From: Escherichia coli
Lineage (GTDB): Bacteria; Pseudomonadota; Gammaproteobacteria; Enterobacterales; Enterobacteriaceae
NCBI RefSeq assembly: GCF_013315695.1
Contig: NZ_CP054353.1
Reading direction: 5' to 3' (one strand)
Length of the DNA stretch: 64,000 nt
Made by a program: the position numbers and the translations under genes. Shown one piece after another: positions 9,813 through 17,286 of this stretch. The notes under the pieces are model-generated. The model had not been told where the DNA came from and ran no database searches. It worked only from the letters and a program-made list of their open reading frames with translations. Numbering within the stretch: the first letter of the stretch is position 1; every line of letters starts with the position of its first letter.

Positions 9813-12800
9813 ATGGGAAAAGGTGGCGGTAAGGCACACACGCCTCGTGAGGCGAAGGATAATCTCAAATCCACGCAGATGATGAGTGTGATTGATGCGA
9901 TTGGTGAGGGACCGATAGAAGGTCCGGTGAAGGGACTGCAGAGTATTCTGGTGAACAAAACCCCGCTGACGGACACGGACGGTAATCCCGTGATACACGG
10001 TGTGACTGCGGTCTGGCGTGCCGGGGAGCAGGAGCAGACACCACCGGAAGGCTTTGAGTCCTCCGGAGCTGAAACCGGACTGGGCGTGGAAGTGACGAAG
10101 GCAAAACCGGTGACGCGCACCATTACGTCCGCGAACATTGACCGCCTGCGGGTTACCTTCGGGGTGCAGTCACTGGTGCAGACCACGTCAAAGGGCGACC
10201 GTAATCCTTCCTCTGTCCGGATTCTGATTCAGTTACAGCGTAATGGCCGCTGGGTGACGGAAAAGGATGTCACCATTAACGGCAAGACCACCTCGCAGTT
10301 CCTGGCCTCGGTGATTCTGGATAATCTGCCTCCCCGGCCCTTTAACATCCGGATGGTCAGGGAGACGGCGGACAGCACCACGGACCAGCTGCAGAATAAG
10401 ACGCTGTGGTCGTCATACACCGAAATCATCGATGTGAAACAGTGCTACCCGAACACGGCCATTGTGGGGCTGCAGGTGGATGCGGAGCAGTTCGGCGGCC
10501 AGCAGATGACGGTGAACTACCATATCCGCGGTCGCATCATCCAGGTGCCGTCAAACTATGACCCGGAAAAACGCACGTACAGTGGTATCTGGGACGGCAG
10601 CCTGAAACCGGCATACAGCAACAACCCGGCCTGGTGTCTGTGGGACATGCTGACTCACCCGCGCTACGGCATGGGAAAACGTCTGGGGGCGGCGGATGTG
10701 GACAAGTGGGCGCTGTATGCCATCGGGCAGTACTGCGACCAGACGGTCCCGGATGGTTTCGGGGGGACCGAGCCGCGGATGACCTTTAATGCGTACCTGG
10801 CACAACAGCGTAAGGCGTGGGACGTTCTCAGTGATTTCTGCTCTGCGATGCGCTGTATGCCGGTATGGAACGGCCAGACGCTGACGTTCGTTCAGGACCG
10901 TCCGTCGGATGTGGTGTGGCCGTACACCAACAGCGATGTGGTGGTGGATGATAACGGCGTGGGTTTCCGCTACAGCTCCAGTGCCCTGAAGGACCGGCAC
11001 ACGGCAGTGGAGGTGAATTACACCGACCCGCAGAACGGCTGGCAGACCTCCACGGAACTGGTGGAAGACCCGGAAGCCATACTGCGCTACGGACGCAACC
11101 TGCTGAAGATGGACGCGTTCGGCTGTACCAGCCGCGGTCAGGCCCACCGTGCCGGGCTGTGGGTGATAAAGACCGAACTGCTGGAAACGCAGACGGTGGA
11201 TTTCACGCTTGGGTCACAGGGGCTGCGTCACACACCCGGTGACATCATTGAAATCTGTGATAACGACTATGCCGGGACCATGACCGGCGGACGTGTCCTG
11301 TCCATCGATGCCGCCAGCCGTACCCTGACGCTGGACCGGGAGGTGACACTGCCGGAGACCGGCACGGCCACTGTTAATCTGATTAACGGCAGCGGTAAGC
11401 CGGCGAGCGTGGCCATCACCGCACACCCCGCGCCTGACCGGATACAGGTCAGCACCCTGCCGGATGGTGTGGAGACATACGGTGTGTGGGGACTCTCCCT
11501 GCCGTCACTGCGTCGTCGCCTGTTCCGCTGTGTCTCCATCCGGGAAAACACGGACGGCACCTTTGCCATCACGGCGGTGCAGCACGTACCTGAAAAAGAA
11601 GCCATCGTGGATAACGGGGCCCGCTTTGAGCCGCAGTCAGGCACCCTGAACAGCGTTATCCCACCGGCAGTGCAGCACCTGACGGTGGAGGTGAGCGCAG
11701 CTGACGGCCAGTATCTGGCGCAGGCTAAATGGGACACGCCGCGGGTGGTGAAGGGCGTGCGCTTCAGTCTGCGCCTGACCAGTGGTAAGGGAACGGATGC
11801 CAGACTGGTGACCACCGCCATCACCGCAGACACGGAGCACCGTTTCAGCGGCCTGCCACTGGGGGAATACACCCTGACGGTGCGGGCCATTAACAGCTAC
11901 GGCCAGCAGGGCGAACCTGCGACCACCACCTTCCGGATTAACGCGCCTGCAAAACCCGCCACCATTGAGCTGACGCCGGGGTATTTTCAGATAACGGCGG
12001 TACCGGTGCTGGCGGTGTATGACCCGACGGTGCAGTTTGAATTCTGGTTCTCAGAAAAACGCATCACGAACACGGCACAGGTGGAAAAATCTGCCCGTTA
12101 TCTGGGGACCGGCAGTCAGTGGACTGTCCAGGGGAGCCGGATTAAGCCGGGGACGGATTTCTGGTTTTACGTGCGAAGCGTCAACCTGGTGGGAAAATCT
12201 GCTTTTGTGGAAGCCAGCGGGCAGCCCAGCAATGATGGTGAAGGGTATCTGGAAATTTTCCGGGGGCTGATAGATGAGACGCTTCTGGGGCAGGCACTGA
12301 AAGAGCGCATTGATGCTTCAGCGCTGCGTACGGAGGTCACGCAACTGGAAGAAGATATCCGTCAGCGGATGGACACGGATATCGCAGAAGTGACCCGGAA
12401 AATCGGGAAGGCGGAAAACAGCCTCACGCAGCTGGTTGCGAAAAAGAATGAGGACCAGACACTGGCCATCGCGCAGGTGAGCCAGAAAGTGGACCGGGTG
12501 AGCAGTGAAATCTCACAGACTGTCAGCCAGGGGCAGTCAGAAAACGCCCGACAGATAGCACAGGTCCGCCAGTACGTGGATAAAAAAGGGAGTGAAATTA
12601 CCTCGACCACGGATAAAAAGCTGGGTGACCAGGCCGTGACCATACAGCAAATCCAGCGGGTTCAGTCAGACACGCGCAATGAGCTGAATGCCATGTATAT
12701 GCTGAAGGTGCAGAAAACAAAAAACGGTATTCCCTATGTGGCCGGGATTGGCGCGGGGATTGAGGATGTTGATGGTCAGACCCTGAGTAACATTCTGCTG

Positions 12801-13505
12801 CAGGCCGATCGCATTGCGATGATTACCCCGGAGAACGGCAACACCACGCCGCTGTTTGTGGCGCAGGGGAATCAGCTGTTCATGAACGACGTGTTCCTGA
12901 AGCGACTGTTTGCGGTGAGCATCACGTCATCCGGCAATCCTCCGACGTTTTCCCTGACGCCGGATGGCAGGCTGACAGCCCGCAATGCGGATATCAGTGG
13001 AGCCATCACGGCGAATACCGGCACGCTCAATAATGTCACCATTAACGAGAACTGTGTCATCAGAGGGAAACTGTCTGCAAACCAGATTGAAGGCGATCTC
13101 GTTAAAACAGTGGGTAAGGCTTTCCCCCGTGACTCCCGTGCACCGAAGCGTTGGCCATCAGGAACCATTACCGTCAGGGTTTATGACGATCAGCCGTTTA
13201 ACCGGCAGATTGTTATTCCGGCGGTGGCTTTCAGCGGTGCCAGACATGAGCGGGAGAACAGCGATACTTATTCGTCATGCCGCCTGATAGTGAAGAAAAA
13301 CGGTGCTGAAATTTATAACCGTACCGCGATGGATAATACGCTGGTTTACAGTGGTGTTATTGATATGCCTGCTGGTCGCGGCCACATGACGCTGGAGTTT
13401 TCTGTATCAGCATGGTGGGTAAATGGCTGGTATCCCACAGCAAGTATCAGCGATTTGCTGGTTGTTGTGATGAAGAAAGCCACTGCAGGCATCACGATTA
13501 GCTGA
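9813..13505 (+). CDS. J: Host specificity / central tail fibre protein J
   Basis: 1230 aa; N-terminal 850 aa and C-terminal 270 aa colinear with lambda gpJ; extra coiled-coil segment in between. Confidence 0.95.
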
Positions 13506-14198: not shown

Positions 14199-14225
14199 AG
14201 CCCGCCGGTTCAGGCGGGCTTTTTT
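14199..14225 (+). terminator. Rho-independent terminator after lom
   Basis: AGCCCGCC-ggttca-GGCGGGCT stem then TTTTT. Confidence 0.65.
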
Positions 14226-14236
14226 GTGGAGTGGAT

Positions 14237-16303
14237 ATGGCAGCAGTAAAAATCTCAGGTGTGCTGAAAGATGGTGCGGGAAAACCAATACAGAACTGCA
14301 CTATTCAACTGAAGGCAAAGCGTAACAGCACCACGGTACTGGTGAACACGGTGGCCTCTGAAAATCCGGATGAAGCCGGGCGTTACAGCATGGATGTTGA
14401 GTATGGCCAGTACAGCGTCACCCTGCTGGTTGAAGGTTTTCCACCTTCACATGCCGGGACCATTACCGTCTATGAAGGTTCCAGACCAGGTACGCTGAAT
14501 GATTTTCTCGGTGCCATGACGGAGGATGATGTTCGTCCGGAGGCACTGCGCCGTTTTGAGCTGATGGTGAATGAAGTGGCACGTCATGCCGGAGCGTCAT
14601 CACAGAGTGCAGCGGCGGCAAAGAAATCCGAAACGGCAGCAGCCTCATCGAAGAATGCGGCGAAAACCTCAGAAACGAATGCAGCTAACAGCGCACAGGC
14701 GGCAGCGGCCTCGCAGACTGCATCGGCAAACTCCGCGACAGCAGCCAAAAAATCAGAAACCAGCGCGAAAAATAGCGAGACAGCCACAAAGGCCAGCGAA
14801 AAAAACGCAAAATCCAGCCAGACGGCAGCGAAAACCAGTGAGACGAATGCCAAAGACAGTGAAGCCAACGCAAAGGTGAGCGAAACAGCGGCGGCGAACT
14901 CGGCGAAAGCATCGGCAGCAAGCCAGACGGCAGCAAAAGCAAGTGAAGATGCTGCCAGAGAATACGCAAACCAGACAGCAGAGCCGTACAGATATGTTTT
15001 ACAGCCGCTGCCGGATGTGTGGATACCCTTTAATGATTCGCTGGATATGATTACGGGCTATTCTCCGGGTTATAAAAAAGTGAAGATTGGTGATAATGTG
15101 GTTCAGGTTGCCAGTGATAAACAGGTTAATTTCAGTCGCGCATCAACGGCAACATATATCAACAAATCTGGCGAACTGAAAACGGCGGAAATTAATGAGC
15201 CACGATTTGAGTGTGATGGCCTGCTTATTGAGGGGCAAAGAACGAACTTCTTCCCGAACAGTACAGACCCTTCGAAGTGGAATAAGTCAACTTCACTGGA
15301 CGTTACAGAAACAGGCACAGATAGTTTCGGGTTTAATTATGGCCGGTTTGTCGTACAGGATTCGATTGTTGGTACAAGTAAAGCGCATACCATTATCGGA
15401 CTGTATTCGAGTACCGGAGGGGTTGATACTTCAGGGGACGAAAAGCATGTAACTATATCCTGTCGGGTAAAAAGTGAAGTTGATAATATCGCCGTTCGTA
15501 TTTTATTTGAACATTATGATGGGGAGGTAAGGACATCAATAGGAGCAGCAAACCTGAACCTTACCACCCGCATAATTAGCAAGACAGGTCAGACAAGCCG
15601 TGTTACAGCAAGGTCTGTTAAGGATGATGCAACTGGCTGGATATTTTTTGAGGCTACATTAAAAGCAGATACAACAGAAAATACGGTTGGTGGTTTTGTC
15701 CAGTATTCTCCGGATACAGGGCAGATGGTTGCATCAGGGGATTATCTCGATGTAACCACTCCACAGATTGAGGCTGGTACAGGCGCATCATCTTTTATTG
15801 TTACGGGGACGGCACCGGTAACGCGGGCAAGCGATATGGTTACAGTTCCGATTAAGAATAATCTTTATAATCTTCCTTTTACGGTTCTTTGTGAGGTACA
15901 TAAGAACTGGTATAAAACGCCAAATGCAGCACCGCGTGTTTTTGACACATACCGGCATCAGGCAGATGCGGGGATCGTAATGGGGTTTGGTTCATCAGGT
16001 GGGTACGACGGTTTTCCGTATTGCGATATAGGTGGTTCAGACCGACGAATAAATGAAAATGCCGGGCTGGAAAAAATGCTTATTGGTATGCGGGTAAAGT
16101 CCGAACGGTCCACATGTGTAGTCAGTAACGGTAAGTTAAGCAGCGAAACTAAAACCAAATGGGAATATATCCGGAGTACAGCAACCATTCGCATTGGTGG
16201 ACAAACTACAGCAGGATTACGCCATTTATTTGGGCATGTGAGGAATTTTCGTCTCTGGCATAAAGAGCTAACAGATGCGCAGCTTGGGGAGGTTGTGGAG
16301 TGA
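14237..16303 (+). CDS. stf: Side tail fibre protein, lambda Stf-like N-terminus with divergent C-terminal receptor-binding domain
   Basis: First 120 aa match lambda Stf (AVKISGVLKDG...), then Ala/Ser/Thr-rich SETNA/AAKxSE repeats, then about 400 aa with no lambda counterpart; start set at ATG 14237. Confidence 0.75.
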   Translation: MAAVKISGVLKDGAGKPIQNCTIQLKAKRNSTTVLVNTVASENPDEAGRYSMDVEYGQYSVTLLVEGFPPSHAGTITVYEGSRPGTLNDFLGAMTEDDVRPEALRRFELMVNEVARHAGASSQSAAAAKKSETAAASSKNAAKTSETNAANSAQAAAASQTASANSATAAKKSETSAKNSETATKASEKNAKSSQTAAKTSETNAKDSEANAKVSETAAANSAKASAASQTAAKASEDAAREYANQTAEPYRYVLQPLPDVWIPFNDSLDMITGYSPGYKKVKIGDNVVQVASDKQVNFSRASTATYINKSGELKTAEINEPRFECDGLLIEGQRTNFFPNSTDPSKWNKSTSLDVTETGTDSFGFNYGRFVVQDSIVGTSKAHTIIGLYSSTGGVDTSGDEKHVTISCRVKSEVDNIAVRILFEHYDGEVRTSIGAANLNLTTRIISKTGQTSRVTARSVKDDATGWIFFEATLKADTTENTVGGFVQYSPDTGQMVASGDYLDVTTPQIEAGTGASSFIVTGTAPVTRASDMVTVPIKNNLYNLPFTVLCEVHKNWYKTPNAAPRVFDTYRHQADAGIVMGFGSSGGYDGFPYCDIGGSDRRINENAGLEKMLIGMRVKSERSTCVVSNGKLSSETKTKWEYIRSTATIRIGGQTTAGLRHLFGHVRNFRLWHKELTDAQLGEVVE

Positions 16304-16578
16304 GAGATTTCACGTTGCGTTTCAGTGATAAAGCAGATTTCAGGGCATTTCTCAGGAAACTTAACTGGGAAGAGGACGAAGAGCTGCAGAATGCCGTTCT
16401 GGTTGATGAGATTGGTTTTACGTTCAGGGAGACAGATGTTTCTGATGACGGAGAACCAGAATACACGCGAAACGAAGGGTACTTTGTTAATATCCGTCTT
16501 CTTGACGATGGATTTGATGATTCCGTGTTCCGTGAGTGGGTGGTTACACCAGAGCGCCCGCTCAGGGAGTGGTTTTAA
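16300..16578 (+). CDS. Hypothetical acidic protein (92 aa) downstream of stf
   Basis: ORF overlapping stf stop by 4 nt (translational coupling); occupies the tfa position but is shorter and unlike lambda Tfa. Confidence 0.4.
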   Translation: MRDFTLRFSDKADFRAFLRKLNWEEDEELQNAVLVDEIGFTFRETDVSDDGEPEYTRNEGYFVNIRLLDDGFDDSVFREWVVTPERPLREWF

Positions 16579-16587
16579 GGATAGCAG

Positions 16588-16875
16588 ATGGATATCACGT
16601 CGATACTTCATGCGCTTTGTGCCGTAGCGGTGCAGGTACTGGCTGGTCTTTTTACCGGAAACTGGGCTTACGGTGCGATAGCCGGTTGTACGTTCTTCAT
16701 TGCGCGTGAACACACCCAGGCAGAATATCGCTGGATTGAAATGTTTGGGCATGGCAAGAGGATTAACATGCCGTGGTGGGGCGGTTTTGATCCGCGCGTG
16801 TGGGATGTGGCAAGCCTGATGGATTTTGCTGTGCCGGTGGTGGCGTGTCTGCTGATCTGGATGTTGATCCGTTAA
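16588..16875 (+). CDS. Hypothetical small membrane protein (95 aa)
   Basis: Two predicted hydrophobic segments at N- and C-termini; last ORF before att. Confidence 0.4.
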   Translation: MDITSILHALCAVAVQVLAGLFTGNWAYGAIAGCTFFIAREHTQAEYRWIEMFGHGKRINMPWWGGFDPRVWDVASLMDFAVPVVACLLIWMLIR

Positions 16876-17224
16876 ATATAAAAAGTAAAAAGCCGCAGTA
16901 ACTTGTCATGACAGGATACTGCGGCTGGCTGGTTAACTTTCGATAGTGCGAGTATTGAATGATTTCCAGCTGTTACTGATTTTATATAACTGCAGTGGAA
17001 TTATTCAACACACAGGCAAAACGGAATAAGCTGAGAAAAAAAGCGTGCTTTCCCAATCTGGGGTAAATCACATCTGAATGACACCTGAAAACAGGTGGTG
17101 GCCTCAAGAAGGCTTGGAATATTCTTCTTTAATGTTATGTAATTTATTGATTTTTCGTGTACGATTTTAAGACATTTATTCCAAGAAAAATTTTTAACTC
17201 TTTGATTTTTCGACTCTGTATCAT

Positions 17225-17286
17225 CGGTCTCGAAAACCGGAGTAGGGGCAACTCTACCGGGGGTTCAAATCCCCCTCTCTCCGCCA
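17225..17286 (+). tRNA. Partial tRNA-Ser (3' 62 nt, serU-like, anticodon loop to CCA end): prophage attachment-site repeat, not a full gene
   Basis: CGGTCTCGAAAACCGGAGTAGGGGCAACTCTACCGGGGGTTCAAATCCCCCTCTCTCCGCCA matches the 3' part of E. coli tRNA-Ser(CGA) as I recall it; the 5' acceptor/D-arm is absent. Confidence 0.7.

Follow-up and report, generated by a model that had tools for sequence, protein, structure and literature searches.

Architecture of the fibre cassette

The stretch of DNA analysed here, 64,000 nucleotides of the Escherichia coli contig NZ_CP054353.1 (assembly GCF_013315695.1; hereafter the window), represents the right end of a lambda-like prophage. The subject of this study is a cassette of three genes on its plus strand (14237-16875), encoding a side tail fibre, an acidic protein of 92 residues (orf92) and a membrane protein of 95 residues (orf95). 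The fibre starts with a tail-attachment domain like that of lambda Stf and ends in an unrelated distal module, to which orf92 is firmly coupled. The features are:

14199-14220, plus strand: terminator-like hairpin after lom, directly upstream of the fibre gene (8-bp stem with seven GC pairs, then TTTTTGT)
14237-16303, plus strand: side tail fibre gene (PHROG 1419, 'tail protein'), 688 residues from the ATG chosen by RefSeq or 690 residues from a GTG at 14231
14243-14632, plus strand: residues 5-134 of the fibre, Stf N-terminal tail-attachment domain (Pfam PF08400, E 3.8e-67; PDB 9e7m; BLASTP to lambda orf-401)
14582-14995, plus strand: residues ~118-255, low-complexity shaft of Ala, Ser, Lys, Thr, Glu and Asn, recognised by composition and SE[TKA] motifs
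14993-15220, plus strand: residues 255-330, 'neck', where the distal module is best conserved
15221-15850, plus strand: residues 331-540, domain A, a predicted, hypervariable beta-sandwich resembling the head spike fibre of a gene transfer agent (GTA)
15851-16300, plus strand: residues 541-690, domain B, a second predicted beta-sandwich of the ConA/LamG type, with a variable core and a conserved C-terminal tail
16300-16578, plus strand: orf92, acidic protein of 92 residues (PHROG 1361, 'unknown function'); its GTG start overlaps the fibre stop codon (GTGA) and is preceded by the Shine-Dalgarno sequence GGGGAGG
16588-16875, plus strand: orf95, predicted inner-membrane protein of 95 residues (PHROG 1443, 'unknown function'), starting 9 nt after orf92

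Residues 3-122 of the fibre aligned to lambda Stf with ∼87% identity over the first 120 residues (116 of 157 positions in a longer BLASTP alignment), and the N-terminus matched the solved structure of Stf residues 1-94 (PDB 9e7m) with an E-value of 5e-49. An initial annotation, made from the sequence without database searches, had called this part near-identical to Stf; homology was confirmed, but the wording was slightly generous. The low-complexity stretch of AAK/SETNA type that it had described next was recovered, as residues 116-253 consist to 87% of A, S, K, T, E and N and contain eight SE[TKA] motifs. Since Tandem Repeats Finder detected no DNA-level repeat in the shaft, these repeats are degenerate and exist at the protein level only; it is also only at the level of the repeats that the shaft resembles that of Stf. 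Beyond it, the distal ∼436 residues (estimated at ∼400 in the initial annotation) were not similar to the C-terminus of lambda Stf (BLASTP against orf-314, best E 1.4). Likewise, the cassette was found to lack a tfa gene, as had been proposed: neither small ORF had a Pfam match, and the orf92 product did not align to lambda Tfa, whereas lambda Tfa itself matched Caudo_TAP (PF02413) at 2.8e-43. The view of the fibre as a mosaic with a swapped distal region is, therefore, supported.

Compared with the Stf-Tfa system of lambda (Ur-lambda), the cassette has the same position after J and lom, the same type of N-terminus and a SETNA-type shaft, and it presumably shares an accessory role in reversible adsorption. 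It differs in its unrelated tip of 436 residues, in the absence of Caudo_TAP and in the presence, instead, of a 92-residue protein of a different fold.

The distal module carries two exchangeable domains

The distal module was analysed with profile and structure searches. Residues 332-533 matched NCBIfam NF048003 (GTA_spike_fiber) with 72.1 bits, against a curated cutoff of 36 (E 8.4e-20), over profile positions 1-181 of 182. When 24 diverse homologues were combined into a profile, this matched PDB 6tb9, which is Rcc01080, the head spike fibre of the Rhodobacter capsulatus GTA, with an E-value of 3e-18. Domain A is, on the strength of these profile matches, homologous to Rcc01080. The AlphaFold2 model of residues 255-690 is all-beta, with a pLDDT of ∼90 in domain A (residues ∼335-525), of 70-89 in domain B (the last 160 residues) and low values for the neck in the monomer. 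When the model was compared with the PDB using Foldseek, the matches comprised baseplate proteins of the Pseudomonas phages Pa193 and E217, the N-domain of BoNT Hc, tandem galectin-8, laminin LG and C-reactive protein; the lectin-like matches had a probability of 1.0, yet E-values of only 1e-3 to 1e-6 and TM scores of 0.25-0.35 for the whole two-domain query. The fibre sequence did not match Pfam Laminin_G_3; it ends in …VRNFRLWHKELTDAQLGE, which we take to be typical of LamG-type domains. We read the C-terminus of the fibre, as modelled, as two tandem ConA/LamG-like beta-sandwiches, and the early guess of a lectin or jelly-roll fold is what both kinds of search returned.

Comparison of 21 homologues revealed an alternation of conserved and variable segments: a conserved neck (residues 255-330), a hypervariable region (331-540), a conserved linker, a variable region (571-660) and a conserved tail (661-690). 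Across the 24 diverse homologues, the neck retained many invariant residues; the mean identity of this segment was 0.77. Between alleles, the identity of domain A dropped to 17-60%; residues 571-660 formed allelic classes of 10-100% identity, and residues 661-690 held 57-100%. One locus (L010) encodes an orf92 product identical to that of the window next to a domain A that is only 48% identical, with dS saturated (4.47), so that domain A must have been replaced by recombination rather than changed by local drift. The overall pattern is that of a receptor-binding module in which two specificity domains can be exchanged, and it is the two sandwiches that are regarded as these specificity elements because the alleles differ mainly there.

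Rcc01080 (GhsB) is a single flexible subunit by which GTA particles attach to the R. capsulatus polysaccharide capsule (PMC7296036). It is a spike of the capsid with one such domain and has no orf92-like partner, whereas in the window this domain, with a second sandwich after it, occupies the end of a tail fibre. By analogy with this capsule-binding homologue, and in view of the allelic hypervariability, the sandwich domains may bind glycans. Fibre alleles at least 99% identical were named from strains O25b:H4-ST131, O10, O45:K1 S88, O16:H6 and O6; occurrence of the same allele across several O serogroups makes a single O-antigen an unlikely target, and a conserved structure, for example, the core of lipopolysaccharide (LPS) or the enterobacterial common antigen, is at least as likely.

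The distal module is paired with orf92

The orf92 product is, as initially annotated, an acidic protein (pI 4.3, net charge −12) whose gene overlaps that of the fibre by a stop/start (GTGA). AlphaFold2 predicted a small alpha/beta domain (pLDDT 88) with a conserved but less ordered C-terminal PLREW tail, for which structure searches gave no informative match and, in particular, none to known fibre joints. Searches of Pfam, NCBIfam, PADLOC and the sequences in the PDB, with single sequences as well as family-wide, yielded nothing credible for either orf92 or orf95, and the defence profiles of PADLOC matched neither of them at E-values up to 0.1.

As a large protein search gave only near-identical copies from E. 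coli, the diversity of homologues was drawn from IMG/VR, where a profile of orf92 collected 80 loci; together with cultured phages, the sample comprised 87 loci, and the upstream gene could be called in 74 of them. In these 74, orf92 was positioned between −4 and +23 nt from the end of a fibre gene with the same type of C-terminus, mostly overlapping its stop codon. The last ∼436 residues of the upstream fibres aligned with the distal module of the window, full-length in nearly every case, and their N-terminal anchors were of the lambda, T5, T1 or rV5 type. Judged by this arrangement, orf92 is an obligate partner of the distal module in lambdoid, T5-like, T1-like and rV5-like phages; the earlier proposal that the 92-residue protein belongs to the swapped module agrees with its coupling to that module in every relative examined. 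The distal module occurred in 218 phage records and orf92 in 191, which are similar numbers. For 64 distinct pairs of fibre and orf92, the divergence of orf92 correlated best with that of the neck (rho 0.54), followed by that of the tail (0.42), and only poorly with that of the variable domains (0.16-0.23).

In phage 4A7 (locus L005, 7008-9424), and likewise in D2, 1W and 3W, an IS66-like element (three 'mobile element protein' ORFs) splits the 3′ end of the fibre gene; homologues of orf92 and orf95 remain downstream of the insertion.

The cassette is a two-gene form of a branched-fibre module

The distinct orf92 loci differ in what follows this gene. Within the clade to which the window belongs (31 loci), orf95 was next in 27, and a distal fibre gene was next in none. 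The other 33 loci (five clades from lambdoid, T5-like and T1-like phages) have a second fibre gene ∼9 nt after orf92, the exceptions being one rV5-like locus and one where the second fibre gene is apparently truncated at its 5′ end. These distal fibres comprise 225-586 residues, with coiled-coil-like repeats, diverse tips and a self-cleaving Peptidase_S74 chaperone domain, and share the N-terminus M-[AV]-T-x-T-[VI]-IP-x-DI-x-x-LK. This peptide was encountered only in phages that also carry orf92; the 40 residues following it belong to a widespread fibre module. In the window, where orf92 is followed after 9 nt by orf95, there is no downstream second fibre gene with a docking N-terminus. Its cassette is, thus, the two-gene form of a three-gene branched-fibre module. 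Without the distal fibre, orf92 is nevertheless maintained: in the clade lacking it, dN/dS for orf92 was 0.22-0.54 (calculated from close pairs only, as dS is saturated in distant ones), which indicates purifying selection.

In T5-like, T1-like and lambdoid phages, the relatives of the cassette resemble the branched fibres of T5-like phages, such as LtfA/LtfB of DT57C and Gp22-24 of IrisVonRoten, in encoding a proximal fibre and a distal one with Peptidase_S74. Gp24, the distal protein of IrisVonRoten, has been modelled as T-shaped, a dual receptor-binding protein connecting to a proximal fibre (PMC11990801). In mar004NP2, the distal gene was called an ltfB orthologue, and the 'two genes immediately upstream' were suggested to complete the fibre; the homologue of the proximal fibre was detected in virions (PMC6563131). 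Of the three proteins, only this proximal fibre is listed in the virion proteome of mar004NP2; orf92 and the distal fibre are missing from it (PMC6563131). The annotators of the BASEL collection named the 92-residue protein 'tail fiber protein'. DT57C LtfA/LtfB was also considered as a precedent for the small ORF and was rejected: DT57C has no orf92, its LtfB has a different N-terminus, and its joint is a mid-fibre region like that of phiEco32 gp14/gp15 (PMC4728585), whereas the window has no distal fibre at all.

orf95 is conserved irrespective of the fibre

As initially described, orf95 encodes a membrane protein. It has three hydrophobic segments (residues 5-23, 28-39 and 76-94) and a conserved loop of 36 residues, which probably faces the cytoplasm because most of the positive charge is located there. 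When 1.8 billion representative proteins were searched with a profile, orf95 was placed in a family of 529 clusters at 50% identity, all of them stand-alone proteins of ∼90-130 residues, in which H8, R40, E41, Q44, W72 and P83 never vary and E46 and D79 hardly do. Among lambdoid phages, the protein is 87-97% conserved, however far the fibre diverges, and its dN/dS of 0.15-0.26 indicates purifying selection. A small membrane enzyme, or an inhibitor acting on a conserved membrane protein of the host, would likewise fit the invariant polar residues.

Relatives were found directly behind the tailspike of the epsilon15-like phage phiv142-3, behind the P2-type fibre and assembly protein of Halomonas phage phiHAP-1, and also behind a Laminin_G_3 protein, pectate-lyase/S74 tailspikes and a pair of genes for 585 and 147 residues at a prophage end. 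The constant neighbour is, thus, a receptor-binding module, because a lysis cassette is next in some of these relatives but not in the lambdoids or phiHAP-1. Because orf95 is conserved across phages with unrelated receptor-binding proteins, it does not seem to be matched to any one receptor. Matches in phages were mostly to temperate ones, and in the T5-like and T1-like versions of the fibre cassette that were sampled, orf95 was never the next gene; it is, therefore, dispensable for the fibre and goes with a temperate lifestyle.

The initial annotation had suggested that the membrane protein could be a Cor-like exclusion factor. As a statement of homology, this did not hold: orf95 gave no alignment to Cor of N15 with an E-value below 100, and no PHROG function, Pfam family, or exclusion or defence annotation (PADLOC) could be assigned to it. 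Cor (of N15, phi80 and HK022) and Llp of T5 are comparable insofar as they are small envelope proteins encoded beside receptor-binding genes; unlike them, orf95 is a predicted polytopic inner-membrane protein with invariant polar residues. As the family occurs largely in temperate phages, an exclusion-type function is still conceivable.

As there is a strong terminator-like hairpin after lom, a spacer of only 9 nt and no promoter-like site before orf95, the gene is read with the late operon in the window. In phage 2G7b, which has the three-gene form, a terminator-like hairpin (GGGGTCGAGCGCCCC, then TTTTATT) is located between the distal fibre gene and the orf95 homologue (locus L006, 6711-6749); this suggests that orf95 can be transcribed there as a unit of its own, in contrast to the window.

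Distribution of the cassette

The initial annotation had regarded the arrangement as unusual, which turned out not to be the case: it is a common type, present in phages 21, mEp460 and ev243, in complete E. coli genomes and across four phage groups. The 3.4-kb region was present at a coverage of at least 80% in 288 of 5,426 complete E. coli genomes, with a median of four places per E. coli genome matching the region of the window, and no fewer than 1,000 contigs carried the exact sequence of orf92. In the databases, the two small proteins were named 'hypothetical' throughout.

The same three-gene order is present in the cultured lambdoid phages ev243, PhiR49_2, PhiR40_1, 21 (CPT_21_22 to _24) and mEp460. 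Identity of the fibre to that of the window was 98% for ev243, 98% for PhiR49_2, 79% for PhiR40_1 and 58% for phage 21; over phage 21, ev243 and mEp460, it ranged between 58 and 98%, that of orf92 between 64 and 92% and that of orf95 between 87 and 95%. These phages differ from the window in the alleles of their sandwich domains, and their genes are annotated only as 'side tail fiber', 'hypothetical' and 'putative membrane protein'. A functional study of the cassette of phage 21, ev243 or mEp460 was not found in the literature, and the Eligo paper on lambda-Stf chimeras is silent on this type of fibre. Thus, the cassette did not match any well-characterised stf-tfa cassette; it is a standard and recurrent type that is as yet uncharacterised.

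Prophage context and transcription

The region is 100% identical to that of strain MSB1_4I, where head and tail genes are followed by J, lom, the fibre gene, two hypothetical genes and, already on the chromosome, zinT, msrQ, msrP and hiuH. At this identical locus, RefSeq names the fibre 'prophage tail fiber N-terminal domain-containing protein' and the next two genes 'hypothetical protein'. The 3′ end of a tRNA-Ser (…GGTTCAAATCCCCCTCTCTCCGCCA) was recognised near 17226-17286, adjoining zinT; a complete tRNA was not found at this position. The partial tRNA-Ser is the junction between prophage and chromosome, an attachment site of the serU type. The terminator-like hairpin after lom suggests that the fibre operon would be read only through antiterminated late transcription.

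J (9813-13505 of the window) comprises 1230 residues and is only 57% identical to J of lambda. It contains an insertion of ∼100 residues (roughly 835-960), and its receptor-binding C-terminal end has diverged, so that LamB is probably not the terminal receptor.

Just past the stop codon of orf95, the minus strand contains a strong hairpin followed by a U-run (∼16891-16926, within 16876-16975; −27 kcal/mol, z −4.8), to which no Rfam family matched. It would terminate transcription facing the prophage from the side of the attachment site; a weak sigma-70-like site on the minus strand (17008-16979) could yield a transcript of ∼90 nt. In phage 21 (locus L003, 6731-10055) and phage 4A7 (L005, 10268-11917), the iron/manganese transporter operon sitABCD lies directly after the orf95 homologue on the opposite strand, whereas only ∼350 bp separate orf95 from the attachment site in the window.

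Probable function of the cassette

Taken together, we consider it probable, with some reserve, that the cassette forms the receptor-binding end of a lambda-like prophage, composed of a fibre with a lectin-like tip, orf92 as its partner and orf95 as an envelope protein. The fibre of the prophage, which is integrated at serU, would attach to the tail tip via the Stf-like N-terminal domain, extend by a short Ala/Ser-rich and presumably trimeric shaft, and end in the neck bearing the two ConA/LamG-like sandwiches, whose most likely ligand, in a reversible first contact, would be a surface polysaccharide or an LPS structure. The orf92 product would replace Tfa as a dedicated partner, its synthesis being tied to that of the fibre by the stop/start overlap, and would most likely bind the neck and the C-terminal tail, with folding, capping or stabilising of the distal module as its task. 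Where orf92 lies between the proximal fibre and a distal fibre with the docking peptide, as in related cassettes, the pair may form the joint of a branched fibre. orf95, the last gene of the late operon here, is probably not part of the fibre. Its most likely role, held with low confidence, would be protection of the infected or lysogenic cell, or of the progeny, at the level of the envelope, by blocking superinfection or entry.

An alternative, which we hold possible but would not favour, is that the orf92 product is a structural hinge or adaptor that stays in the virion as a socket for the N-terminal peptide of the distal fibre; in the window, it would then only cap the fibre or recruit a distal fibre from elsewhere in the cell, such as one encoded by another prophage. 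A precedent would be gp35, which is monomeric and located at the knee of the long tail fibre of T4. The distal fibre gene with its conserved N-terminal peptide 9 nt behind orf92 in the other clades, the confinement of this peptide to phages having orf92, and the name given to the protein by the BASEL annotators all argue for such a socket; the distal fibres, moreover, bring their own Peptidase_S74 chaperone domain and have no need of orf92 for folding, and a median of four matching places per E. coli genome makes supply in trans conceivable. However, a pure adaptor would be expected to decay where there is no distal fibre, whereas orf92 is kept under purifying selection in a clade having no distal fibre in 27 of its 31 loci, and it is for this reason that folding, capping or stabilising is preferred; the product was, furthermore, not reported from the virion proteome of mar004NP2 (which is weak evidence) and has no structural similarity to known fibre joints. 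It could also be imagined that so small and acidic a protein of no known fold hitch-hikes beside the fibre gene as an anti-defence factor or DNA mimic. This is highly improbable, since its tight coupling to one fibre C-terminus in four unrelated phage groups would not survive such mosaicism, and since its divergence tracks the conserved segments of the fibre.

For orf95, superinfection exclusion in the manner of Cor or Imm, by function rather than by family and expressed from the prophage, is a tentative reading about which we are doubtful. The place behind receptor-binding genes is classic for exclusion genes such as cor in N15, the family is mostly temperate and was not seen after the sampled cassettes of virulent phages, conservation is strong (87-97%) whatever the fibre allele, and in type-B lambdoids a terminator-like hairpin separates orf95 from the fibre genes, as in a moron. 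Against this stand the lack of sequence similarity to Cor and of any matching exclusion or defence profile, the position 9 nt after orf92 without a promoter-like site, and the invariant His, Arg, Glu, Gln and Asp residues, which, together with the cytoplasm-facing loop, point to a catalytic site or to a conserved target in the cell or membrane, and less to an outer-membrane receptor that varies by strain. Quite unlikely is a late envelope factor for lysis or release, be it a partner of the holin or a protein keeping progeny off debris. Although several distant relatives place orf95 between the gene for the receptor-binding protein and the lysis cassette (with VanY/CHAP endolysins two to three genes downstream, and holin-endolysin following in phiv142-3), and although it is transcribed with the late operon in the window, orf95 stays with the fibre genes and far from the lysis genes in lambdoids, phiHAP-1 and two further loci (L093 and L094). 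Its loop is long, conserved and rich in invariant polar residues, and a charged C-terminal tail is absent, both of which are unlike holins; nor is there an endolysin gene nearby in the window.

The observations on both small proteins can be combined into a bolder, and in our estimation unlikely, proposal. orf92 and the neck would then constitute a hitherto undescribed universal 'socket' for branched lateral fibres in lambdoid, T5-like, T1-like and rV5-like phages, accepting distal fibres by a peptide of ∼15 residues (T-x-T-x-IP-x-DI-x-x-LK), and lysogens with the two-gene form would arm their fibres with the distal fibres of other prophages. Separately, orf95 would represent a new and widespread class (more than 500 clusters) of inner-membrane proteins linked to receptor-binding proteins, with a catalytic or target-binding site of His, Arg-Glu, Gln, Glu and Asp, perhaps acting as a new kind of entry block.

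Although the cassette itself is ordinary in its frequency and general logic, a domain map of the distal module, its strict pairing with orf92 across four phage groups and the recognition of a two-gene form lacking the distal fibre are new. The docking peptide of the distal fibres and the orf95 family provide concrete leads. Side or lateral tail fibres decide which strains are first held by a phage, and they are swapped when phages or lambda-derived delivery particles are engineered. The type described here is common in prophages of E. coli, including those of ST131 and other extraintestinal lineages, and is also present in virulent phages kept in therapy collections. A chimeric fibre of this type would probably need orf92, not Tfa; for the engineering of fibres, this is of direct use, and so is the knowledge of which segments are conserved and which are exchangeable.

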